This document shows positions 1 through 62,469 of a stretch of 64,000 nucleotides of DNA, in pieces (within the stretch, counting starts at the first letter, position 1; the number at the start of each line of letters is the position of its first letter). Source of the stretch: Ferruginibacter sp. (lineage in GTDB: Bacteria; Bacteroidota; Bacteroidia; Chitinophagales; Chitinophagaceae); NCBI GenBank assembly GCA_031398005.1, contig JANNMO010000013.1, positions 29,953 through 93,952 on the forward strand, in the 5' to 3' direction. The notes under the pieces are model-generated. The model made no database searches, was not told the DNA's origin, and saw only the letters and a program-made list of their open reading frames with translations. Made by a program: the position numbers and the translations under genes.

Positions 1-1032
1 CAGCATCCCTTTTTTAATGGCAGCTTTTGCCATGTCTTCTATAGTATTATTTCCATCGCTCCAGTTACTATGGCAATGTATTAAGCCTTTTACGTCATTG
101 GGCTGTAAATGAGCTGTAAAGGGTTCATCTAGTGTAATAACTTCTTCATTCTCCCTTAAAAACGCAGGAATAATTGGAAGTTTTCTAATAGTAAAGTATT
201 CTTCTTCAGATCTAGCTGGTATGTCAGTATTAAAATCAGTTTTAATTTTTGTAAAAAAATGTTCTGAAGACGATGTTTCAATAAATTTTTCTATAACGTT
301 TTCTGTAACGCCATATAATTTCACTTTTACACCAATGACTGTTTTATATAAAATATAATCTTTTCCTTTTTCTAAAAACGCTAAACCTTGTTGTGTTGTT
401 AAATTTTTTTCTATATGGTCAATATCATTTTCAACAATGTATTCCAGCACTGTTATTATTTCCATTTGCCTCAAAAATTCTCCAGTTAATAAAACCCTTT
501 TTGCAGGAAATTTTTGTTGTAAAAAAAGTAAAAATTGTTCAGCTCCATAAATTAGTTGAGCGTATAAAAAACTACCCTTGTTTCTAAAATAAAATTCTAT
601 GTTTTCTATAACAGTTAATTGAGTTTTTTCTCCAAACCCTTTAAAAAGTTTAAGCCTGTTTTCTTTGCATGCATACAATAATTCACCTACACTTTCCAGT
701 TGCATTTCTTTCCAAATAGTATGTATTTTTTTAGGGCCTATTCCTTTTATTTTTAGCATCTCAACAACACCTTGTGGAGTAGAAAAAATAATTTCTTCCA
801 GTTGATTTAATTTGCCTGTTTTTAATAATTCTTGTATTTTTTTTGCAGATGATGCACCAACACCTTTTAAACTTTCAATTTCATTTACAGGAATTTCTTC
901 TAATTGAACAGGTAATTTTTCAATTGCAAATGCAGCAGATGCATAAGATTTTGCTTTAAAACTATTCTCTCCATGTATGTCCATTAGTTTTGCAAGCATC
1001 GAAAATGAATCTGCTATTGCTGAATTATTCAT
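1..1032 (-). CDS. DNA polymerase X family protein (HhH + PHP), N-terminal ~344 codons; 3' end lies beyond the window start
   Basis: Absent from the ORF track because it is open at the window edge. My translation from the ATG at 1032..1030 reads MNNSAIADSFSMLAKLMDIHGENSFKAKSYASAAFAIEKLPVQLEEIPVNEIESLKGVGASSAKKIQELLKTGKLNQLEEIIFSTPQGVVEMLKIKGIGPKKIHTIWKEMQLESVGELLYACKENRLKLFKGFGEKTQ... The frame is still open at base 1 (...EDMAKAAIKKGML, typical start of a PHP domain). Confidence 0.75.
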   Translation of the reverse strand, partial: MNNSAIADSFSMLAKLMDIHGENSFKAKSYASAAFAIEKLPVQLEEIPVNEIESLKGVGASSAKKIQELLKTGKLNQLEEIIFSTPQGVVEMLKIKGIGPKKIHTIWKEMQLESVGELLYACKENRLKLFKGFGEKTQLTVIENIEFYFRNKGSFLYAQLIYGAEQFLLFLQQKFPAKRVLLTGEFLRQMEIITVLEYIVENDIDHIEKNLTTQQGLAFLEKGKDYILYKTVIGVKVKLYGVTENVIEKFIETSSSEHFFTKIKTDFNTDIPARSEEEYFTIRKLPIIPAFLRENEEVITLDEPFTAHLQPNDVKGLIHCHSNWSDGNNTIEDMAKAAIKKGML

Positions 1033-11321: not shown

Positions 11322-11770
11322 CTTTTCCTTCCAATTTAACACTGAACAAGGTTTACTATACTCAGTTTATTTCGTTGATTATAGTTCTATGTTTTATCAG
11401 TTTCCTCATATTGCAAGTTCTATTTACAGTTTCAATATTGATGTAATTGAAGGAGATGCAAACCAGTCTTTAAACGATGAAAGAATTGGAAGTACAATTG
11501 CAGAAATTTTCAAGCTTTTTTTTTACTGAAATTGAAAACGTTGCAGTATTTGTATGTGATATGATTGATGAAAGACAATACGCCCGTAAAAGAAAATTTG
11601 ATTTTTGGTTTAATAAATATAATGATGGTTCCATCATTAAGAAAGACAATATTATAAAAATTGAAGGTGTAGAAATTTTCAATTCCTTATTGCTGAGTAA
11701 AGCCAATATAAATTTTATTGAAATCGTATCTGCTTATAACCTGATAAATGAAACCTCAACTGATAAATAA
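11290..11770 (+). pseudogene. Hypothetical ~159-aa gene split by a frameshift at a T9 homopolymer (11516..11524)
   Basis: Track ORFs 11290..11529 and 11477..11770 overlap in different frames. Removing one T gives a continuous ...DERIGSTIAEIFKLFFTEIENVAVFVCDMIDERQYARKRKFDFWFNKYN... Confidence 0.6.
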
Positions 11771-11828
11771 GGTTTTTTATATTTTACAATGATGCGGCTA
11801 TTGTTGATTAAAGAACTAAAAGCCGAAA

Positions 11829-11952
11829 GGCTGCCTGATGGGCAGTAGTAGCTGCTGCAAATAATAAAATTTAGATTATAACAAACTTTGTTGCGGCACT
11901 ACTACATACAGCAGGAACTACTGCCTCATTATTGTATTCCTTTTACAGCCCC
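11829..11952. ncRNA. Candidate structured RNA / REP-like palindromic element, copy 1 (unclassified)
   Basis: Shares GATGGGCAGTAGTAG...ACTTTGT...CTACTACA.ACAGC...ACAGCCCCAAA with 47289..47411. Has a 15-bp bulged hairpin (11845..11860 with 11891..11905) and is closed by GGCTG/CAGCC. Confidence 0.45.
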
Positions 11953-12006
11953 AAATTCTTCTCTCCCAATAAAATGATATTGTATATTCGTAGCTGACAA
12001 ATTTTT

Positions 12007-12750
12007 ATGAAAAAAATTGCCGGTTTTATTTTCAGTATCTATGCTTTTGTAGTTTTTATTACGATCATGCTTTTGTTGTTTCCTTTTATAGTTATTGCAT
12101 CATTTTTTGGCAGGGTAAAAGGAGGGAATATGATTTATAGTATTTGTAGGGTATGGGCAGATATTGTGCTTTGCCTTTGGGGTATTCGCCACAGAAATAT
12201 TTTTGAAGCACCAAAGTCAAAAGACCATGCGGTAATATTTGTGTTTAACCATATTTCTTACATTGACATTCCTTTTATGATGAAGGCATTTCGCCATGAG
12301 CCCATACGGATTTTGGCTAAAGCAGAAATGGCTAAAATTCCCATTTTTGGTTATATCTATAGAAATTCAACAGTAATGGTAGATAGAGAAAGTGATGTTG
12401 GCAGAACCAAAAGTGTGCACCAATTAAAAAGGGTTTTAGCAAAAAATATTTCGGTGGTAATTGCACCGGAAGGTACGTTTAACATGACCCACAAACCATT
12501 GAAAGAATTTTACAATGGCGCTTTTAAAATTGCGGTAGAAACAAATACACCCATACAACCGGTACTTTTTTTAGATGCTTACGATCGGTTAAATTACAAC
12601 AGTATTTTTAGTTTGACGCCAGGTAAAAGTAGGGCAGTTTTTTTGCCTGAAATTATGTCGGGTAATGATGCAGCATTGCTTAAGCAAAAAGTATACGATG
12701 AAATGGAGAAGGGGCTGGTTCGTTATAAGGTGAGTTGGTTAAAGGGTTGA
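12007..12750 (+). CDS. 1-acyl-sn-glycerol-3-phosphate acyltransferase (PlsC-like lysophospholipid acyltransferase)
   Basis: N-terminal TM segment; HX4D motif FNHISYIDIP; APEGT motif VIAPEGTF. Confidence 0.8.
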   Translation: MKKIAGFIFSIYAFVVFITIMLLLFPFIVIASFFGRVKGGNMIYSICRVWADIVLCLWGIRHRNIFEAPKSKDHAVIFVFNHISYIDIPFMMKAFRHEPIRILAKAEMAKIPIFGYIYRNSTVMVDRESDVGRTKSVHQLKRVLAKNISVVIAPEGTFNMTHKPLKEFYNGAFKIAVETNTPIQPVLFLDAYDRLNYNSIFSLTPGKSRAVFLPEIMSGNDAALLKQKVYDEMEKGLVRYKVSWLKG

Positions 12751-12787: not shown

Positions 12788-12904
12788 GTTTCTTAATAAA
12801 TTCATACTATGGTTATAATATTTTAGACTTGCTATTTAATGTTGAAAAAAGATATAATGAAAAACTTGTTATTAAAGAAGTATAATTTATAAATAAAAGC
12901 TTGG

Positions 12905-12939
12905 CCTCCCTCTCTTTTGGAGAGGGACCGAGGGTGAGG
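12905..12939. repeat. G+C-rich palindromic mini-element abutting the priA start codon
   Basis: CCTCCCTCTC-tttt-GGAGAGGGA-cc-GAGGGTGAGG. 8-bp stem TCCCTCTC/GAGAGGGA. Ends 2 nt before ATG 12942. Confidence 0.7.
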
Positions 12940-12941
12940 TT

Positions 12942-15443
12942 ATGCAAGAAAACGAATTAGATTTTAATGAACCAACATCTGGCTACTGGGCAGAAATTAT
13001 TCTTCCGCTGGCGTTGCCTAATGTATATACGTATAGCGTGCCTGTACATATGATAGCTGCTGCACAAGCGGGCTGCAGGGCAGAGGTATTGTTTGGAAAA
13101 AATAAAAAGTACGCCGGTATCATTAAAAAATTAATTACAACAGAGCCTCCGTACAAAACAAAACCTCTCTTAAATATTTTAGATGATACAGCCCTTGTTT
13201 ATCCGCAACAATTAAAACTGTGGCAATGGATGAGCGAATATTACATGTGTACCGAAGGCGAAGTAATGGCTGCAGCATTGCCTGCAAATTTTAAACTAAG
13301 CAGTGAAACTGTTTTAATTTTTAATGAAGAATATGGAGATGATTTTACTAGTCTGGGCGATGAAGAATTTTTGGTAGGAGAAGCACTGTTGATTAAAAAA
13401 GAGCTCACAATTACAGAAGTGCAACAAGTAATGGATGCTACACATGTGTACCCAACAATAAAAAAACTCATAGAAAAAAATGTTTGTTTTATTAGAGAAG
13501 ACCTCAATGATAAATACAAAGTAAAAAAAGAAAACTATGTAATATTAAATCCACAATTTGCCAATGAAGATGCCCTTGCCCCATTATTAAACGATTGGAA
13601 AGGTGCACCCAAACAAATGGAATTATTGCTCGCTTTTTTACATGTAAATAAAACGGAAGGAGAAGTTACACAGACCGCTTTGCTTAAAAAATCAGGGGCT
13701 TCTGTTACGCAACTAAAAGGCCTGGCAGATAAAAATATTTTATTTATAGAGAAGCGCAGTATAGACAGGGTGCGTAGTTTGCCGAAAAATATTAATATAG
13801 ATTTTGAATTAAGTGAAGCGCAAACAACTGCTCTAGCAGAAGTGAGAAATAGTTTTACTGAAAAAAATGTTTGTCTTTTGCATGGAGTTACAAGCAGTGG
13901 TAAAACACAATTGTACATTAAACTTATTGAAGAATATTTTTTGCAGGGAAAACAAGTTTTATATCTTTTACCAGAGATTGCTTTAACCGCACAAATCATA
14001 CGCCGCTTACAAAAACATTTTGGTGGCAACATAACTATTTACCATTCTAAATTTAATAACCAAGAACGAATTGAGCTTTGGAATAAAATAAGAACAGGCG
14101 AAATAAAAATAGTACTGGGTGCAAGAAGCTCATTGTTCCTTCCATTTAAAGATTTAGGTTTAGTAATAGTAGATGAAGAGCACGACTCATCGTACAAGCA
14201 GCAAGATCCTGCGCCACGCTACAATGCAAGAGATGCTGCTATTTTTTATGGTTCTCTTTTTAGTGCAAAAATTTTATTGGGTAGCGCCACACCTTCTTTA
14301 GAAACTTATTACAATGCAAAACAACATAAATATGGCTTGGTAGCATTAGACGAACGCTTTGGTGGTATTAAATTACCTGCAATAGAAATTATAAACACCA
14401 CACAGGTTGTACAGAAGGCCCGCCCGGATAACCCTGTTGGACGGGGCAAAGTGATGATTAGTCCGCAATTAAAAGAAGCCATACAAAAAGCAGTAGAGAC
14501 AGATAGGCAGGTAATACTTTTTCAAAACAGAAGAGGCTATAACCCTTACCTGATATGTGGTACATGCGGTTACTTGCCACAATGTGTGCATTGTGATGTA
14601 TCCCTTACGTTGCACAAATACAGCAACAAATTACATTGTCATTATTGCGGTAGCACTTACCCAAAGTTGGTTACCTGTCCGGCTTGTGGTAGTAACAACT
14701 GGTTAGAAAAAAACTTTGGTACAGAAAAAATTGAAGAGCAACTGGAAAATGATTTTGACCAATTTAAAATTGCCCGTATGGATGTGGATAGTGTTCGTGG
14801 CAAAACAGCACACGATAATTTAATACATCTTTTTGAGCAACAGCGCCTCGATATTTTGGTAGGTACACAAATGGTGGTAAAAGGATTAGACTTTGAAAAA
14901 GTAAGTTTGGTTGGTGTACTAGATGCTGATGGCTTACTAAGTTTTGCAGACTTTAGAGCAAACGAAAGAGCGTTTCAATTAATGGAGCAGGTGAGTGGGA
15001 GAGCGGGCCGCAAGCATGAGCAAGGCAAAGTAATGATACAGGCCATGAATGTAAAACATCCCATTTTATTATTGGTGCAGCAGCACGATTATAAAAAGTT
15101 TTACGATTTTGAAATAGAAAAAAGGAAAGAATTTTTTTATCCGCCATTTAGTAGAATGGTAATGATAACTTTAAAACACAGAGACAAAGAAACTGTGGAA
15201 GCGGCTGCAAATAAATTGGCAAGTTTGCTTTCGCAAGATTTAAAAGATTTTATTACTGGCCCTGCAGCACCAGTGGTTGGGCGTTTACGCAATATGTATT
15301 TAATGGAGCTGATGATTAAATTACCAAAGGAAGCCGGTATGAGTAACACTTATCGAAAAGTAATTCGCAACCATATTAATTTAATGCAGGGCGAAAAAAT
15401 TTATAGAAGTGTGGTGGTGGTAACGGATGTGGATCCGATGTAG
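12942..15443 (+). CDS. priA: Primosomal protein N' (replication restart helicase PriA)
   Basis: 833 aa. YWAEIILPLALPNVYTYSVP N-terminus, Walker A LHGVTSSGKTQ, DEEH box VIVDEEHD, Cys-rich zinc region CGTCGYLPQCVHCDVSLTLH...LHCHYCG...CPACGS. Confidence 0.95.
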   Translation: MQENELDFNEPTSGYWAEIILPLALPNVYTYSVPVHMIAAAQAGCRAEVLFGKNKKYAGIIKKLITTEPPYKTKPLLNILDDTALVYPQQLKLWQWMSEYYMCTEGEVMAAALPANFKLSSETVLIFNEEYGDDFTSLGDEEFLVGEALLIKKELTITEVQQVMDATHVYPTIKKLIEKNVCFIREDLNDKYKVKKENYVILNPQFANEDALAPLLNDWKGAPKQMELLLAFLHVNKTEGEVTQTALLKKSGASVTQLKGLADKNILFIEKRSIDRVRSLPKNINIDFELSEAQTTALAEVRNSFTEKNVCLLHGVTSSGKTQLYIKLIEEYFLQGKQVLYLLPEIALTAQIIRRLQKHFGGNITIYHSKFNNQERIELWNKIRTGEIKIVLGARSSLFLPFKDLGLVIVDEEHDSSYKQQDPAPRYNARDAAIFYGSLFSAKILLGSATPSLETYYNAKQHKYGLVALDERFGGIKLPAIEIINTTQVVQKARPDNPVGRGKVMISPQLKEAIQKAVETDRQVILFQNRRGYNPYLICGTCGYLPQCVHCDVSLTLHKYSNKLHCHYCGSTYPKLVTCPACGSNNWLEKNFGTEKIEEQLENDFDQFKIARMDVDSVRGKTAHDNLIHLFEQQRLDILVGTQMVVKGLDFEKVSLVGVLDADGLLSFADFRANERAFQLMEQVSGRAGRKHEQGKVMIQAMNVKHPILLLVQQHDYKKFYDFEIEKRKEFFYPPFSRMVMITLKHRDKETVEAAANKLASLLSQDLKDFITGPAAPVVGRLRNMYLMELMIKLPKEAGMSNTYRKVIRNHINLMQGEKIYRSVVVVTDVDPM

Positions 15444-20861: not shown

Positions 20862-20987
20862 TTTTCCTAAAATAAAAATGAGCGAAAAGCAAAATGGATA
20901 ATTTCACTCTTCGCCCAAAATTATTACTTTTTTTACCAGCTTATTCTCTTCATTCTTTCATCATACTTGTAATGGTACTTCTCCTTT

Positions 20988-21150
20988 CTTCTCTTTCGCT
21001 CCTTTGATCTCCCAGTCTCTTTTATCTCCTTATCTCCTTTCTTCTCTTTCTCTCCTTTGTCCTCCTAGCCTTCTTTTCTCTCCTTTAATCTCCTTTAAAC
21101 TCCTAGCTCTCCTTCACTTCTTTTTCTCCTTTAATATCCTTTATTTCCCC
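20988..21150. repeat. Polypyrimidine (CT) tract with nine CTCCTT words (AAGGAG on the minus strand)
   Basis: Read directly: nine CTCCTT between 20991 and 21132, with almost no purines on the + strand. Begins right after the ATPase stop (21151) on the minus strand. Confidence 0.85.
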
Positions 21151-23231: not shown

Positions 23232-23300
23232 TTATTTTTTCTTTATTAAATAATATCTTCCAAAATGCAAAGTATATCTGATGTCTCCCCCCTTTTTTTT

Positions 23301-23512
23301 TAAACGCCTTCCCGTCTTTCCGTCAAAAATAATACACGCAGAGTGTGAAAAATTTTTGCGAAGCAAATCAAACCCCCGTCTTACTTTTTCTGAAACGTCT
23401 TCCCTTCTTTCCGGCAAAATAACATTTGCGCAGCAAATCAACCCCCGTCTTACTTTTTCTTAAACGCCTTCCCGTCTTTCAGGCAAAAAAAACATTTGCG
23501 CAGCAAATAATC
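23301..23512. repeat. Tandem repeat, about 2.7 units of 69-90 bp
   Basis: Units start at 23301, 23391 and 23460. Shared words AAACGCCTTCCCGTCTTTC...CATTTGCGCAGCAAATCAACCCCCGTCTTACTTTTTCT. Unit 1 carries an extra ~21 nt. The last unit runs into the VWA stop codon. Confidence 0.85.
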
Positions 23513-38401: not shown

Positions 38402-38441
38402 TCTAATTTGATAATTAGCTAATTTGCTAATATGCTAATGT
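38402..38441. repeat. 8-bp microsatellite-like array (CTAATNTG x5)
   Basis: ctaatttg ataattag ctaatttg ctaatatg ctaatgtg. Confidence 0.8.
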
Positions 38442-38724
38442 GCAGCTTACAATTTTTTTAAAGAACTTTATATAATTGTATTTTCCATTTGACTTTAATA
38501 TGTCAGACAGGTTCTAAGCTGCTAATATTTTATATTTACATGTTTCACACACATGTATTGAATGCAAATATGCAAAATGGGATTTTCAAAATTTAAAAGT
38601 TGTTTTAAATATTAAAAAGCCCACTGTAAGTTTTTTCCGTCTTCAAGCATTTATTATGGGTTGCACATTGGCGCCAAGTGAAACTTTACGTTTATTGCTT
38701 TAAAACCAATACTGTTTGCTGCCG

Positions 38725-41434: not shown

Positions 41435-41880
41435 TATTATGGGTTTAGATTATATTTTACAAAGATGATACCAATGAAATATTTATGAAAATATAAATGC
41501 GTTTCATTTGGTTTTTATGTTTAAACAATATACAAATTAAAACTTTTTAATATTAGTTCATAAAAACAAAGCCTTTTAATTTGTAATGCTTTTTTTAAAT
41601 GACAAAGGAACTAACATATGCTTACAAACAATGGTAATATGCCTACCATTGAGTGTGAAATACTTGAGTAAATAAAAGTTGAAAAAAGATATACTGCTGA
41701 GCATAGCCCCGATTGCAGCAATATCCTTTTTTTGACTGCCTTTGAGGCAAAAAAAGATAGTAGCAAAAAGCGGGAAACCAATGTTGATAAATGCGCCCAT
41801 GCTCATGCTCCTCCTTCGGCGGACAAGTCCTAAAACTTTGAACCATGAACCATTCACATTAATGAACTATCAAAATACAC

Positions 41881-45367: not shown

Positions 45368-47173
45368 ATGAATCATTCTTTTTATCCAAAAACAACCAGC
45401 CAATTAATACTCACTTTCTTTTTTGCATGTCTGCTTTTTGCATCCTGCCAAAAAACGGTAGATGAATCAGTTCCTCCAATTCCTCCAGTGGCACCAGCAC
45501 CTGATCTTACTACAAAAGTAAGTTCATCTGTGAGTGGTTTTGTAACAGACGAAAATGAACTGCCTGTAAAAAATGCAAACGTAGCAGTAGGAACATCTAC
45601 AAGCATAACAGATAAATATGGTTTTTTTGAAGTAAAAAATGTACAGGTTGTTCAGAATGCCGCTATGGTTACCATAACAAAAACGGGTTATTTTAAAGGT
45701 ATAAAAACATATATAGCTGCAGCTGGTAAAACTGCTTTTTTTAGAATTAAACTTATTCCTAAAACAATATCGGGAACGGTGAGTGGCACAACAGGTGGCA
45801 CGGTTACACTTGCAAGCAACCTTAGTATTTTGTTTCCTACAAATGGATTTGTAAATGCAAGTACAAATGCTGCATACACCGGAACCGTAAATGTAACAGC
45901 TTTTAAAATAGATGCCACCAGTGCAGATTTAGCTCGCATTATGCCCGGTGATTTAAGAGGTTTAAATACCGATGGAAATTTACAAATTCTTACCACCTAT
46001 GGAATGGCTGCTGTAGAACTTACAGGCGCAGGTGGCGAATTGTTGCAAATAGCAACCGGCAAAAAAGCAACCATGACAATGCCAATACCAACCACTTTAA
46101 TTTCTACAGCGCCTGCAACTATTCCACTTTGGTATTTTGATGAAACAAAAGGATTGTGGATGCAAGAAGGTGTAGCCACAAAAACCGGCGGCAATTATGT
46201 GGGAGATGTAAGCCACTTTAGCTTTTGGAATTATGATGTGCCTGCTAATTTTGTTCAGTTTAATTGTACGGTTGTAAATTCTGCAGGGTTACCAATACCC
46301 AATGTTCAGGTAAAAATTTCTCAGGTGAGTAATCCTAATTCTGCAGGATATGGATATACAGATTCTGCCGGTTATGTAGGTGGTGCGGTGCCAAATAATT
46401 CAACATTATTATTGCAGGTGTTTGGTGCTAATAATTGTAACGTGCCTTCCTACACACAAACATTTAATACCACCAATGTAAATGTATCATTGGGTGCTGT
46501 AACTATATCAACGGCTACTTCGTTGTCTGTTTTATCTGGTACGGTTACCAATTGTAGCAATGCGCCGGTTACCAATGGTTATATCATTATCCAAAATGGA
46601 TATATTTTTAGCAGACACGCCTTGAGTGCTACAGGCACCTATTCTGTAAATAGATTATTGTGTGGAACTGCTCCCAATAATGTTACATTAATTGGAGAAG
46701 ATATTACTGCAGCGCAACAAAGCAACCCTGCAGTATATCCAACTGTTGCGGGTAATAACACTATACCTACTATACAGGCTTGCGGTGTTTCTATACAGCA
46801 GTTTTTTAATTATAATATTAATGGAACTCCTTACAATTTTTCCGTACCGGGAGATAGTTTAATACTTTCCGGTGCAGGAACCAATACAGATTATTTTGTG
46901 TTTGTAAATAACAACAGCACCACCAATAATGGTACCATGCGATTTGTACGAACTGGTATAGCACAAGGATCTGTTCAAAATTTAATTTCGTTTACACCAA
47001 CCCAAATACCTGCTACCTCTACAATCAACACTCCAATTGGAATAAATATTACCGAATTTGGTGCAGTAGGTCAATATGTAGCTGGAAACCTTTCAGGAGT
47101 GATAACGGGCCCACCACCTACAAACACTGTATATAATGTAACCTGTAATTTTAGAATTCAGAGAACGTTTTAA
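45368..47173 (+). CDS. Secreted protein with carboxypeptidase-regulatory-like (CarboxypepD_reg) domain
   Basis: Signal/lipobox LLFASC. SVSGFVTDENELPVKNANVAVGTSTSITDKYGFFEV is typical of the domain. The rest is T/S/N-rich beta-type sequence. Confidence 0.5.
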   Translation: MNHSFYPKTTSQLILTFFFACLLFASCQKTVDESVPPIPPVAPAPDLTTKVSSSVSGFVTDENELPVKNANVAVGTSTSITDKYGFFEVKNVQVVQNAAMVTITKTGYFKGIKTYIAAAGKTAFFRIKLIPKTISGTVSGTTGGTVTLASNLSILFPTNGFVNASTNAAYTGTVNVTAFKIDATSADLARIMPGDLRGLNTDGNLQILTTYGMAAVELTGAGGELLQIATGKKATMTMPIPTTLISTAPATIPLWYFDETKGLWMQEGVATKTGGNYVGDVSHFSFWNYDVPANFVQFNCTVVNSAGLPIPNVQVKISQVSNPNSAGYGYTDSAGYVGGAVPNNSTLLLQVFGANNCNVPSYTQTFNTTNVNVSLGAVTISTATSLSVLSGTVTNCSNAPVTNGYIIIQNGYIFSRHALSATGTYSVNRLLCGTAPNNVTLIGEDITAAQQSNPAVYPTVAGNNTIPTIQACGVSIQQFFNYNINGTPYNFSVPGDSLILSGAGTNTDYFVFVNNNSTTNNGTMRFVRTGIAQGSVQNLISFTPTQIPATSTINTPIGINITEFGAVGQYVAGNLSGVITGPPPTNTVYNVTCNFRIQRTF

Positions 47174-47195
47174 TAAAAACATTTTTAAACTTATA

Positions 47196-47228
47196 AAAAG
47201 CAGTCATTTTTTTTGACTGCTTTTTTAT
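47196..47228 (+). terminator. Rho-independent terminator
   Basis: AAAAGCAGTCA-ttttttt-TGACTGCTTTT, followed by a T run. Confidence 0.8.
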
Positions 47229-47288
47229 TATTTACCTACTATGAAAATCTATTGCATAATAAAAGTTGAAAAAATATATCCTGCTGAC

Positions 47289-47411
47289 GGGCTGGGGGAT
47301 GGGCAGTAGTAGCCCCCGCCTAATCAAAACATAAAAATTAAGACTTTGTGGCGGGGCTACTACAGACAGCCCCACCAAATGTTGAATAATACTTATCCAA
47401 TCACAGCCCCA
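47289..47411. ncRNA. Candidate structured RNA / REP-like palindromic element, copy 2 (unclassified)
   Basis: Same architecture as 11829..11952. GTAGTAG/CTACTAC plus a bulged C plus CCCCGCC/GGCGGGG. Closed by GGGCTG (47289..47294) and CAGCCC (47404..47409). Sits between two convergent terminators. Confidence 0.45.
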
Positions 47412-47431
47412 AAACTTTTTTCATGATTAAT

Positions 47432-47469
47432 ATACAAAACAAAAACGGCTATCATTTCTGAAAGCCGTT
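47432..47469 (-). terminator. Rho-independent terminator of the aminotransferase gene
   Basis: AACGGCT-12 nt-AGCCGTT (47444..47469), followed on the minus strand by TTTTTGTTTTG. Confidence 0.7.
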
Positions 47470-47489
47470 GTAAAAAAATTATCAATTAT

Positions 47490-48683
47490 TTATTTCCTTC
47501 CCGGATAAACTTTCAACGCTTCGCCTAAACATTCTACAGCTTGCGAAATAGCATCAGCATTCAACACATAGGCAAGTCTTACTTCATCTTTACCCAAGCC
47601 TGGTGTGGCATAAAAACCTGTGGCAGGCGCCATCATTACAGTGTTGCCTTTGTAAGAAAAATCTTCGAGCAACCACTGGCAAAATTTATCGCAATCATCT
47701 ATCGGTAATTTTGCCATTACATAAAATGCACCGCCGGGGTTAGGACAAAAAACTCCGTCAATTTTATTAAGTGCAGTTACCAAAGTATCTCTGCGAAGTT
47801 TGTATTCAGCTTTTGTGGTATCAAAATAATCATCTGGTAAATCTACCGCAGCTTCGCCTAAAACTTGTGCATAATATGGTGGACTAAGCCTAGCCTGTGC
47901 AAACTTCATAGCCACATTTAGCACTTCTTTATTTTTGGTAATGAATGCTCCAATTCTTCCGCCGCAAGCACTGTAGCGCTTGCTGATGGTATCCATCAAC
48001 ACCACACTTTGTTCGGCACCTTTTAAATGCATGGCGCTAGTGTGTGTGCCTTCGTAACAAAACTCACGGTAAGCTTCGTCAGCAAATAAAAACAGGTTGT
48101 GTTTTATTACAATCTCTTTCAGCGTTTCCATTTCGGCAGCGCTGTATAAATATCCTGTAGGGTTATTGGGATTGCAAACTACAATTGCTTTTGTTTTTGG
48201 AGTGATGGCTTTTTCAAAATCTTCAATGGGTGGTAATGCAAAACCTGTTTCGATATTGCTTTTTATAGGCACCACTTTCACATCTGCCTGCACGGCAAAA
48301 CCATTGTAATTTGCATAAAATGGTTCCGGAATAATTACTTCATCTCCTGCATCTAAACATGCCATAAAGCCAAACAAAATTGCCTCGCTACCGCCTGTTG
48401 TTACAATAATTTCATCGGCTGTTACATCAATATTATTTTTGCTATAATACTCCACCAACTTTTTACGATAGCTCTCATTGCCTGCGCTGTGGCTGTATGC
48501 AAGGATATGTACATCGCAATTTTTTACTGCATCTATACAAACCTGTGGTGTTTCAATATCTGGCTGACCAATATTTAAATGGAAAACTTTTGTTCCTCTT
48601 TTTTTTGCAGCTTCTGCAAATGGTACTAATTTTCTAATGGGAGAAGCGGGCATTTCGTGCCCACGGTTACTTATTTTTAGCAT
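47490..48683 (-). CDS. Pyridoxal-phosphate-dependent aminotransferase (class I/II, AspC/AlaA-like)
   Basis: 397 aa. NPNNPTG block and the PLP-lysine block SKRYSACGGRIG. Confidence 0.85.
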   Translation of the reverse strand: MLKISNRGHEMPASPIRKLVPFAEAAKKRGTKVFHLNIGQPDIETPQVCIDAVKNCDVHILAYSHSAGNESYRKKLVEYYSKNNIDVTADEIIVTTGGSEAILFGFMACLDAGDEVIIPEPFYANYNGFAVQADVKVVPIKSNIETGFALPPIEDFEKAITPKTKAIVVCNPNNPTGYLYSAAEMETLKEIVIKHNLFLFADEAYREFCYEGTHTSAMHLKGAEQSVVLMDTISKRYSACGGRIGAFITKNKEVLNVAMKFAQARLSPPYYAQVLGEAAVDLPDDYFDTTKAEYKLRRDTLVTALNKIDGVFCPNPGGAFYVMAKLPIDDCDKFCQWLLEDFSYKGNTVMMAPATGFYATPGLGKDEVRLAYVLNADAISQAVECLGEALKVYPGRK

Positions 48684-56283: not shown

Positions 56284-56385
56284 ACTTTTCAATGTTATTG
56301 TTTGCAACATAATAAATCCATCATCAAATTTTCATGCATTATTTGATTGTGTAAATTTATAAAATAAAATTTGTTGTGCAGTATT

Positions 56386-56645
56386 GGAGCATGGGCCAAA
56401 GAAACATTTTTCAGCATTCGTTAGCCTGTTCCGAACTTGATTCGGAAGGCTATACGCTGCTGCCGCTCAAACGCAGCGGCATATGCTGCTATTCCGGCTA
56501 TGTTCAGCAAATTTTCTTTACTCAGCTTTAATTGTGCAGTTTGGTTTATGGAGAGTTTGTAATTGTTGTTTGAGGTTTTATATTATTTCCCCAACTGGGT
56601 TTTCTTTTAGTTTAAATCTTTAATAAAGCTTCGCTTAACTCTACT
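56386..56645. repeat. Intergenic paralogous element, copy A (about 260 bp), with conserved hairpin and peptide-like frame on the minus strand
   Basis: Aligns to 62230..62469 over GGAGCATG...GAAACATTTTTCAGCATT...CGCTGCTGCCGCTCAAAYGCAGCGGCAT...GCTTTAATTGTGCA...GGAGAGTTTGTA...TCTTTTA.TTTAAATC...CTTAACTCTA. Confidence 0.8.
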
Positions 56646-62056: not shown

Positions 62057-62229
62057 ATGGTAAAAAATATTTTAAATATGGTCTTATAAAGTTTAAAAAA
62101 AATTAGATAAATTATTATTTTATAAATGCTTAGCCAACATATTTTATGCAGAAAATAATTTTAAAATATTTTAAATTATTTTTTAATTGAAGTAAGATTA
62201 TAATCGACTTTTAACTTTGCGATGTTTGG

Positions 62230-62469
62230 GGAGCATGAGCTGGAGAAACATTTTTCAGCATTTGTTTCGGGCTATTCGCTGCTGCCGCTCAAATGCAGCG
62301 GCATTCGCTGCTATCCCGGCTATGCTCAGCAGATTTTCTTTAATGGGCTTTAATTGTGCAACAGGTTTTAAGGAGAGTTTGTATTTTTTGTTTGTAATTT
62401 TTTTATTGTTTGTCGATATAAAGTCTCTCTTTTATTTTAAATCCGTAGAGGCGCTTCTCTTAACTCTAA
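62230..62469. repeat. Intergenic paralogous element, copy B (about 240 bp)
   Basis: See copy A. It lacks the extra 22-nt TTCCGAA/TTCGGAA hairpin present in copy A. Lies in the divergent spacer between the BlaI-like gene and ORF 62513. Confidence 0.8.

Follow-up and report, generated by a model that had tools for sequence, protein, structure and literature searches.

The window analysed here is the whole stretch of 64,000 nucleotides (64 kb) of contig JANNMO010000013.1 from Ferruginibacter sp. Our subject is an intergenic element of ~125 nucleotides (nt) present in two copies on its + strand, at 11829-11952 (copy 1) and 47289-47410 (copy 2), neither of which is overlapped by an open reading frame (ORF) of at least 50 amino acids. 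An earlier note, made from the letters alone, had placed both copies correctly and on this strand, and all the helices that it listed, GTAGTAG/CTACTAC, the distal helix and the GGCTG/CAGCC clamp, are found there. Its extents needed amending, as the 3' block runs further, to 11952 and 47410, and it had overlooked a 4-bp helix (P2), which is itself compensatory between the copies (CCTG/CAGG versus GGGG/CCCC). The bulged C that it had seen at the same position in both copies is unequivocal in copy 1; a run of C residues in copy 2 allows the bulge to slide and leaves its place ambiguous.

The resemblance of the two copies goes beyond chance, since the 15-mer GATGGGCAGTAGTAG occurs exactly twice within the window (at 11837 and 47298), ACAGCCCCAAA closes both copies at the 3' side (at 11945 and 47403), and a BLAST comparison of the window with itself pairs 11822-11955 with 47283-47413 over 135 nt (67% identity, E = 1e-12). 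On the + strand both copies are more stably folded than their dinucleotide shuffles (z = -2.8 and -3.9). Helices are named P1 to P4 from the paired ends inward, and the ~30 nt that separate the 3' strand of P2 from that of P1 form a 3' arm. Bit scores in the following list are those of R1, a covariance model built from the new class only.

11829-11952, + strand: copy 1, whole element, from its sequence and R1 (122.3 bits)
11829-11833 with 11946-11950, + strand: P1 of copy 1, the GGCUG/CAGCC clamp, from the consensus structure
11834-11837 with 11912-11915, + strand: P2 of copy 1, CCUG/CAGG, from the consensus structure
11838-11844 opposite 11906-11911, + strand: invariant internal loop of copy 1, AUGGGCA opposite AUACAG
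11845-11851 with 11899-11905, + strand: P3 of copy 1, GUAGUAG/CUACUAC
11852, + strand: bulged C of copy 1
11853-11860 with 11891-11898, + strand: P4 of copy 1, TGCTGCAA/TTGCGGCA, with one U-G pair
11861-11890, + strand: A/U-rich loop of copy 1
11916-11945, + strand: 3' arm of copy 1
11917-11925, + strand: alternative partner ACTACTGCC in copy 1, complementary to GGCAGTAGT at 11841-11849
47289-47410, + strand: copy 2, whole element, from its sequence and R1 (125.5 bits)
47289-47294 with 47404-47409, + strand: P1 of copy 2
47295-47298 with 47370-47373, + strand: P2 of copy 2, GGGG/CCCC
47299-47305 opposite 47364-47369, + strand: internal loop of copy 2
47306-47312 with 47357-47363, + strand: P3 of copy 2, GUAGUAG/CUACUAC
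47313, + strand: C after P3 of copy 2
47314-47320 with 47350-47356, + strand: P4 of copy 2, CCCCGCC/GGCGGGG
47321-47349, + strand: loop of copy 2
47374-47403, + strand: 3' arm of copy 2

Relatives and compensatory changes

Relatives were sought with a gapped pattern that left P3 and P4 free, in one genome per species. The scan returned 29 stretches, 18 of them true members and 11 chance matches in GC-rich genomes, and a metagenome scan added ten further loci. The true members, one or two in each genome, belong nearly all to Ferruginibacter genome bins; the other hosts are Ilyomonas and a single bin each of Chitinophagales and Cytophagales. Run on the collected loci (given below as L with a number), R1 identified 30 strong copies, the window copies among them, and several weaker ones.

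RNAalifold, applied to a 20-sequence alignment, found 25 consensus pairs, 13 of which carry compensatory two-sided changes. The 30 strong copies were aligned by fitting to R1, and an independent MAFFT alignment agrees. In this alignment 93.3% of cells are paired (81.5% in shuffles), 67 cells have changed on both sides (18 in shuffles), and the covariation score is 0.279 against 0.087, a value reached by none of 500 shuffles. When the 3' partners were slid by 1-3 columns as a control, pairing fell to 18-51% and the covariation score was at most 0.071. The compensatory changes on which the earlier note had built its case are thus truly present, preserved across 30 homologues, and the comparison that it had called for, with relatives, a covariance model and a covariation test, bears it out. 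Single helices tell the same story: P3 has become GCACUAC/GUAGUGC in L016 and L028 and GCAUCUA/GUAGUGC in L018 (two pairs compensated, two lost), P2 takes six different paired forms among the relatives, and P4 is compensatory even between orthologues, CUGCUGCAA/UUGCGGCA in copy 1 being replaced by CUUAUGCAC/GUGCAUAA in L040. This confirms the element as a family of structured RNAs whose compensatory changes are strong and whose hosts are mainly soil and freshwater bacteria of the Ferruginibacter type.

In helices P2 to P4 of the 24 copies with a plain distal hairpin (A1), 12 G-U pairs were counted against 2 A-C, an asymmetry that favours the + strand of the window as the structured strand.

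A divergent branch of Flavo-1

Flavo-1 comes from comparative genomics, which put it forward as a probable non-coding RNA in Bacteroidetes (Weinberg et al. 2010, PMC2864571); it is among the most abundant small-RNA families in Rfam, with no function assigned (PMC9029176), and the 2.8-Mb genome of the fish pathogen Flavobacterium psychrophilum holds 128 copies (PMC9723704). Scans of 11700-12050 and 47180-47500 against Rfam detected neither Flavo-1 nor any other family, even at E <= 10. Both window copies stay below the Flavo-1 gathering threshold (RF01705, 42 bits), while identical scans detect Flavo-1 at 41701-41781 and 62261-62325; gathering and E-value scans of both copies and 24 loci likewise returned no family other than Flavo-1. 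The remark in the earlier note that it recognised no named RNA family agrees with Rfam as far as matches to the two copies go, but it misses that the element is a divergent relative of Flavo-1.

This relation emerged when the models were compared across classes. R1, despite its origin in the new class only, matches L042:3760-3869 (44 bits, E 1e-7) and L023:4377-4486 (40.6 bits), where Rfam Flavo-1 scores 48 and 47.6 bits, respectively. With filters off it also matches the Flavo-1 copies of the window, at 62225-62323 (24 bits) and 41702-41815 (22.2 bits), and a second-round model, R2, raises these to 49.6 bits (62.3 kb) and 32.1 bits (41.7 kb). The window accordingly has five members, at 11.8, 41.7 and 47.3 kb on the + strand and at 56.4 and 62.3 kb on the - strand, all of them intergenic. 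Those of Flavo-1 type are as follows.

41671-41811, + strand: canonical Flavo-1 copy, including its box at 41671-41700 (Rfam RF01705, 59.2 bits over 41701-41781)
41699-41704 with about 41799-41810, + strand: P1 of this copy, GAGCAU with AUGCUC; its 3' arm is AACCAAUGUUGAUAAAUG
56385-56515, - strand: Flavo-1-like copy with an extra hairpin after P2 (repeat families D2/D14; weak model matches, 12-15 bits)
62225-62330, - strand: Flavo-1-like copy, GAGCAUAGCCGGGAUAGCAGC ... AAACAAAUGCUGAAAAAUGUUUCUCCAGCUCAUGCUCC (Rfam 42.0 bits over 62261-62325, equal to the gathering score)

The 56.4-kb copy is 84% identical to the 62.3-kb copy, ~75 nt of upstream sequence included; the stretches 56385-56579 and 62225-62401 (- strand) flank a BlaI/BlaR1 pair and a DUF5916 gene and resemble a local duplication of the whole unit.

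All members follow one order: a box, CUGCUGA, the 5' strand of P1, P2, GAU-N-G(G)CAG-Y, a variable hairpin, R-A-N-A-G, the 3' strand of P2, AAC, AAAUGYUGAAAAAUGUU and the 3' strand of P1. The core of this order, from P2 (3-4 bp) to AAC/AAA, is that of Flavo-1, with which the new class also shares its many copies, its intergenic position and its home in the Bacteroidota. P1 covaries across the classes, being GGGCUG/CAGCCC in the new class and L042 and GAGCAU/AUGCUC in the Flavo-1-type copies of the window, with its U-A pair turned into G-C in L014:4182 and L011:5611; L014:4182 is an intermediate form that joins a 5' side of the type GAUUGCAGC to the A2 distal module described below. The sense strand of one Flavo-1 copy given in the supplement on F. 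psychrophilum reads CUGAUGGAAGUGAAAAUCC...GUAACGUACAGCAGG (PMC9723704), to which CCUGAUGGGCAGUAGUAGC...CUACAUACAGCAGG of copy 1 is close. Three further features, outside the Rfam model, are common to both classes: the end-pairing helix, a pair of AAUGYU motifs in the 3' arm, and a box that stands at a fixed distance upstream. The cross-class matches, the shared order and the covariation of P1 argue that the 76-position Rfam model describes only the central part of a larger unit. Judged by these comparisons, the new class is a divergent sister branch of Flavo-1 that the Rfam model overlooks, and not a family new in kind.

The differences are nevertheless clear. The new class sets AUGGGCA opposite AGACAG in its loop, where Flavo-1 has loops of the tandem GA type. 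Its P3 helix (GUAGUAG) is long, regular and conserved in sequence, and at its distal end stands either a plain hairpin, whose A/U loop measures 30 nt, or the A2 module. It is found mainly in Chitinophagaceae (Ferruginibacter) and not in Flavobacteriia. The published Flavo-1 motif takes in neither the 3' arm nor the 3' strand of P1, and so has no end-pairing helix.

A reading of the conserved block as the start of a small ORF deserves mention here, since GATGGGCAGTAGTAGC can be read as ATG GGC AGT AGT AGC (MGSSS...), and the ATG is present in nearly all copies of the new class (class A), opening 8 codons in copy 1 and 11 in copy 2. Stop positions and peptide lengths are not conserved, however, the ATG is absent in Flavo-1-type relatives (GATAGCAGC, GATTGCAGC), and substitutions track base-pairing and not codons. 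On these grounds the reading was rejected, and we give it next to no credence.

Fixed and exchangeable parts

The distal helix is the part that the earlier note had expected to be maintained, and 24 of the 30 strong relatives do maintain it. In the other six (subclass A2: L016, L028, L031:5405, L038, L041 and L043:1505), P1, P2, the loop and P3 are retained and the distal hairpin is swapped for another conserved module, CCCACAGGAAUGAGCGnAGnGAAAUGACGAGGAG; this makes the distal helix an exchangeable part and not the core. Next to the 3' end of one gene, at orthologous positions, L029:1841-1971 carries the plain hairpin where L043:1505-1620 and L031:5405-5523 carry the A2 module, which suggests an exchange of domains between copies. 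In five copies the 5' strand of P1 is interrupted by an additional hairpin. Directly after the element in L041, downstream of 379-520 (- strand), stand tandem repeats of ~42 nt (ccaccccaccctttgggcacccctccaacggaggggaattaa).

Invariant unpaired blocks beside freely covarying helices, a paired-end junction, optional hairpins and many copies with patchy occurrence together recall the layout of small ribozymes, and a new self-cleaving, catalytic or ligand-binding RNA, with tertiary contacts between the GGGC(U/A)G and ACAGCC blocks, was therefore considered. Yet no ribozyme or riboswitch of Rfam matches, even at E <= 10, and the candidate pseudoknot partners are invariant, so that no covariation can be read from them. 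The A2 module resembles a hammerhead in its AAUGA-stem-GAAA but lacks the essential C3, U4 and G5; this likeness and a kink-turn seen by eye in the internal loop were both rejected, as defining nucleotides or positions are missing. A catalytic or ligand-binding RNA is, in our view, very improbable.

Upstream box, terminators and neighbouring genes

Upstream of about 26 of the 30 independent copies, at a fixed distance from P1, lies a box with the consensus aataAAaGtTgAAAAAAGATa-nactG. The boxes and terminators of the window are listed here.

11798-11825, + strand: upstream box of copy 1, in the degenerate form CTATTGTTGATTAAAGAACTAAAAGCCG, which aligns with the family consensus
12834-12863, + strand: solitary box, not followed by an element, ~80 nt before priA (12942-15443); repeat family D8, one mismatch to AAAGTTGAAAAAAGATA
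47195-47225, + strand: intrinsic terminator of the upstream gene (45368-47173), found by scan, a 12-bp stem followed by a T run, which separates this gene from copy 2
47250-47287, + strand: upstream box of copy 2, TATTGCATAATAAAAGTTGAAAAAATATATCCTGCTGA, supported by the family consensus and by 93% identity of 47258-47287 to 41671-41700
47445-47469, unstranded: hairpin, read from the sequence, that separates copy 2 from the convergent aminotransferase gene (47490-48683, - strand), flanked by an A run and, at its opposite side, a T run

The 93% match (family D8) joins the two classes directly, as 41671-41700 stands immediately 5' of the Rfam Flavo-1 match. The box of copy 1 is conserved in its orthologue L040, where sequence farther upstream can no longer be aligned. 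A canonical Bacteroidetes promoter (TTG, 17-21 nt, TAnnTTTG) was sought at the elements and none was found; a sigma-70 scan returned weak matches only. Pairing of the A-rich box with U-rich sequence downstream, as a long-range helix, proved inconsistent across copies. A terminator of the upstream gene before the box is also seen by eye at copy 1, L021, L009 and L035, a terminator hairpin follows many copies at 10-60 nt, and an equivalent of the hairpin at 47445-47469 is present in L035/L037. Box and flanking terminators appear to form the layout of an insulated small gene.

The box (AAAAGTTGAAAAAAGATA) consists of two half-sites 10 nt apart and resembles the 3' arm, AAAUGYUGAAAAAUGUU, with its two AAUGYU 10 nt apart (boxes 47258-47287, 41671-41700 and 12834-12863; arms 47374-47392, 41776-41795 and, on the - strand, 62251-62270); it may be a promoter, a site for a regulator or a duplicated module. 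The CiaR-dependent csRNAs of streptococci are several paralogous small RNAs (sRNAs), each placed after the same direct-repeat regulator site. The half-sites of our box, AAAGTT and AAAGAT, 10 nt apart, offer a parallel; the structures are unrelated, and binding of a regulator at the box is only a candidate role.

Neighbouring genes bear on another explanation, that the element is a cis-acting leader (riboswitch or attenuator) or a 3'-untranslated-region (3'-UTR) element of the adjacent gene, with the alternative pairing of copy 1 as its switch. Copy 1 does lie 55 nt upstream of a co-oriented acyltransferase gene, an arrangement preserved in L040; ACTACTGCC can pair with GGCAGTAGT in both, and some Flavo-1 copies of F. 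psychrophilum lie in 5' regions (PMC9723704). With orthologues collapsed, however, the downstream gene is co-oriented in 11 cases and convergent in 12, copy 2 among the latter, and the upstream gene is co-oriented in 14 and divergent in about 8; this mix of orientations rules out an obligate leader or 3'-UTR element. The neighbours are unrelated housekeeping genes without a common function (acyltransferase, PriA, aminotransferase, MnmA, Lon, GlnRS, BlaI/BlaR1 and several DUF proteins), and the gene downstream of the 62.3-kb copy has its own canonical promoter after the element. The switch-like second partner proposed by the earlier note is real in copy 1, yet ACUACUGCC occurs among the 30 strong relatives only there, in the orthologue L040 and in L014:7604, that is, in one orthologous lineage and one other copy; the remaining 27 lack it and have AAC-AAAUGYUGA at this position. 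A leader function is already contradicted for the family as a whole, and a role of this kind is highly unlikely.

Both copies of the window are held at syntenic sites. Copy 1 shares its site with L040, where the flanking proteins are 63-95% identical, and copy 2 with L021 and L037/L035, where the same aminotransferase gene adjoins and the flanking proteins are 59-99.5% identical; persistence beside proteins that have diverged so far points to selection. A 97-aa DUF6169 gene (11477-11770) between a GreA-like gene and copy 1 is absent from L040, so that the neighbourhood has gained or lost a gene while the element kept its place beside the acyltransferase gene. In an arrangement that recurs at L023/L042/L044 (lon), L014 and L011, one member stands upstream of and co-oriented with a gene or gene block and a second downstream in opposite orientation; the genes so enclosed are lon, DUF4294 with PIG-L and a desaturase, and glnS. 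GC skew gave no information on the replication strand.

Several other features of the window were recorded. A G+C-rich hairpin, GGCCTCCCTCTCTTTTGGAGAGGGACCGAGG, at 12903-12932 ends ~10 nt before the start codon of priA. Three direct copies of ~52 nt (AACCCCCGTCTTACTTTTTCT.AAACG.CTTCCC.TCTTTC.GGCAAAA) lie at 23280-23491, between a PD-(D/E)XK gene and a VWA-domain gene, and a short tandem repeat of the type CTAATTTGCTAAT at 38403-38447, also intergenic. Short tandem repeats with periods of 15/18 nt at 1310-1441 and 20980-21094 may fall in coding sequence.

Expression of Flavo-1 in F. psychrophilum

Expression data exist for the sister branch. In Table S3 of the F. psychrophilum study, many copies, among them 0002, 0003, 0005, 0007, 0010, 0020, 0030 and 0040, have an own-strand signal of ~5-8 in exponential liquid culture that climbs to 10-13.6 late in growth and on diluted agar; some of the copies concerned are antisense to genes (PMC9723704). 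Copies share the expression clusters A1747 and A1765, and two Flavo-1 copies are preceded, at 23 and 44 nt, by transcription starts of SigA type (PMC9723704). These data support regulated transcription of the annotated Flavo-1 strand.

Discussion

The structure, its covariation and strand, the relation to Flavo-1, the conservation at syntenic sites, the box and the flanking terminators are established directly by the comparisons above. The reading that we favour, with a probability of roughly one in two, is that each copy is a stand-alone small RNA gene of a many-copy superfamily made up of Flavo-1 and the new class, driven from the box, with an exchangeable distal hairpin, and acting in a pool with its paralogues.

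Such a gene may work as follows. The conserved box, AATAAAAGTTGAAAAAAGATA-nnCTGCTG, at its fixed distance would serve as a promoter or regulator site. Transcription in this organism would run on the + strand through ~125 nt and probably end at the P1 helix with its U-rich tail, or at a nearby terminator. The RNA is predicted to fold into a three-way junction closed by P1, which joins its 5' and 3' ends. Its long arm would comprise P2, the invariant purine-rich loop (AUGGGCA opposite AGACAG), P3, the bulged C and the exchangeable P4 hairpin, and its third arm would be A-rich, with two AAUGYU motifs ~10 nt apart. P4, its loop and the sequence of P2 vary even between orthologues, which leaves the invariant loop and the 3' arm as the likely working surface, and these may dock a protein partner common to all copies. 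The paralogues would then form a co-expressed pool whose action, in stationary phase or when nutrients are poor, would depend on dosage or titration and not on base pairing specific to each copy.

A functional precedent for a pool exists in the same phylum. The paralogous sRNAs FopS and GibS of Bacteroides thetaiotaomicron each have their own conserved promoter, are co-expressed under one condition and bind the RNA-binding protein RbpB; FopS comprises 14 copies of 65-70 nt, each with a single-stranded 5' seed and a terminator hairpin, and its seed pairs with susC mRNAs (PMC11697453, PMC7366714). Both are many-copy sRNA families, but in structure they are unrelated; our element is ~125 nt long and highly structured, with paired ends, no conserved unpaired seed and no sequence similarity, and the Flavo-1 superfamily counts about 100 copies, not 14.

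Several observations weigh against a stand-alone gene. A copy of the box stands without an element upstream of priA, and the box is absent from a few copies (L039/L042, L018). Nor is it a textbook promoter (TTG, 19 nt, TAnnTTTG), the best -7-like reading, TAAAAGTTG, being one base too long. Folding energy of the whole element is lower on the antisense strand in 20 of the 30 copies, probably because the A-rich loops turn U-rich; whole-element energies are thus uninformative on strand, for which reason G-U and A-C pairs were counted in defined helices instead. The site of copy 2 is filled where the aminotransferase is 97-99.5% identical to that of the window and empty in seven related genomes where it is 84-94% identical, and ~125 kb of empty-site loci hold one clear member and one weak match; such patchy presence is a pattern that a repeat element would also show. 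The Flavo-1 copies of F. psychrophilum overlap transcribed regions in sense or in antisense, or in many cases fall outside them, from which the authors concluded nothing (PMC9723704). The shared array profile, which parallels that of tRNA, could moreover reflect cross-hybridisation among the 128 copies.

The most serious rival is accordingly a genomic repeat. REP/REPIN and ERIC sequences of Proteobacteria are dispersed intergenic hairpins of ~35-130 nt, often found at the 3' ends of genes or between convergent genes, with compensatory changes and lineage-specific abundance. If the element were of this kind, or like a miniature inverted-repeat transposable element (MITE), its transcription would be a by-product, the box would belong to the repeat, and the hairpin would be kept through a transposase, a nucleoid protein or a DNA-processing protein acting on single-stranded or cruciform DNA, or through stabilisation of mRNA 3' ends. 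The intergenic hairpin layout, the compensatory changes and the lineage-specific abundance are indeed shared. Convergent genes frequently flank the copies, a site may be filled in one genome and empty in a close relative, and congeneric genomes vary widely in the density of copies; the likeness of the 56.4-kb and 62.3-kb copies, which reaches into the flank, and the variation of the distal module at one orthologous site (L029 versus L043/L031) fit as well. The authors of the F. psychrophilum study saw no consistent relation of Flavo-1 to transcribed strands (PMC9723704). The earlier note had named a MITE-like repeat as what would overturn its case, and copy number speaks both ways: it is low within each class, but the superfamily is many-copy, with five members in 64 kb here and 128 in F. 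psychrophilum.

Other signs of a mobile or repetitive element were not seen in the loci compared. There are no terminal inverted repeats beyond the 5-6 bp of P1, and no target-site duplications at the borders, as judged from the flanks of 38 copies; at the filled and empty sites themselves, rearranged flanks mean that no clean insertion border or target-site duplication can be read. No transposase (a RAYT transposase included), integrase or reverse transcriptase is encoded within the 64-kb window, BLAST against plasmids and phages gave no match, and a pattern scan of viral contigs gave chance matches only. Near-identical pairs or clusters within one genome are absent among the class-A copies found, the window pair being only 67% identical and L020/L021 and L023/L031 similarly diverged. 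The mosaic of invariant unpaired blocks and freely covarying helices indicates selection on function and not recent spread, the asymmetry of G-U over A-C indicates one strand, and copies persist at syntenic sites; a multi-helix junction and an upstream box further set the element apart from REP/REPIN and ERIC. We regard the repeat as a rather doubtful explanation, if the weightiest of those that compete with a small RNA gene.

A bolder extension of the favoured small-RNA-gene reading is that Flavo-1 and the new class form a modular scaffold-RNA system of ~100 or more co-regulated genes per genome, which would supply an abundant, starvation-induced pool of ribonucleoprotein (RNP). Its constant base would consist of the promoter box, P1, P2, the invariant loop, P3 and the 3' arm with two AAUGYU, and its interchangeable modules of the plain hairpin, the GA-rich A2 module and the canonical Flavo-1 hairpin. 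This we consider unlikely as it stands; if true, it would be an undescribed RNP RNA encoded by many genes, with a logic like that of Y or vault RNAs, or of a CsrB-like sponge spread over many loci.

The function of Flavo-1, and whether it acts as an RNA at all, has been a question since 2010. The present analysis adds to it a well-supported sister class in Chitinophagaceae that current annotation overlooks, and indicates that the real unit exceeds the Rfam motif, with an end-pairing helix, a 3' arm with a doubled motif and a box common to very different paralogues, while the distal domain is exchangeable and a small invariant loop stays fixed. By defining a candidate promoter, a strand and a candidate protein-binding surface, it makes the question of whether these sequences are a gene family or a selfish repeat directly testable.

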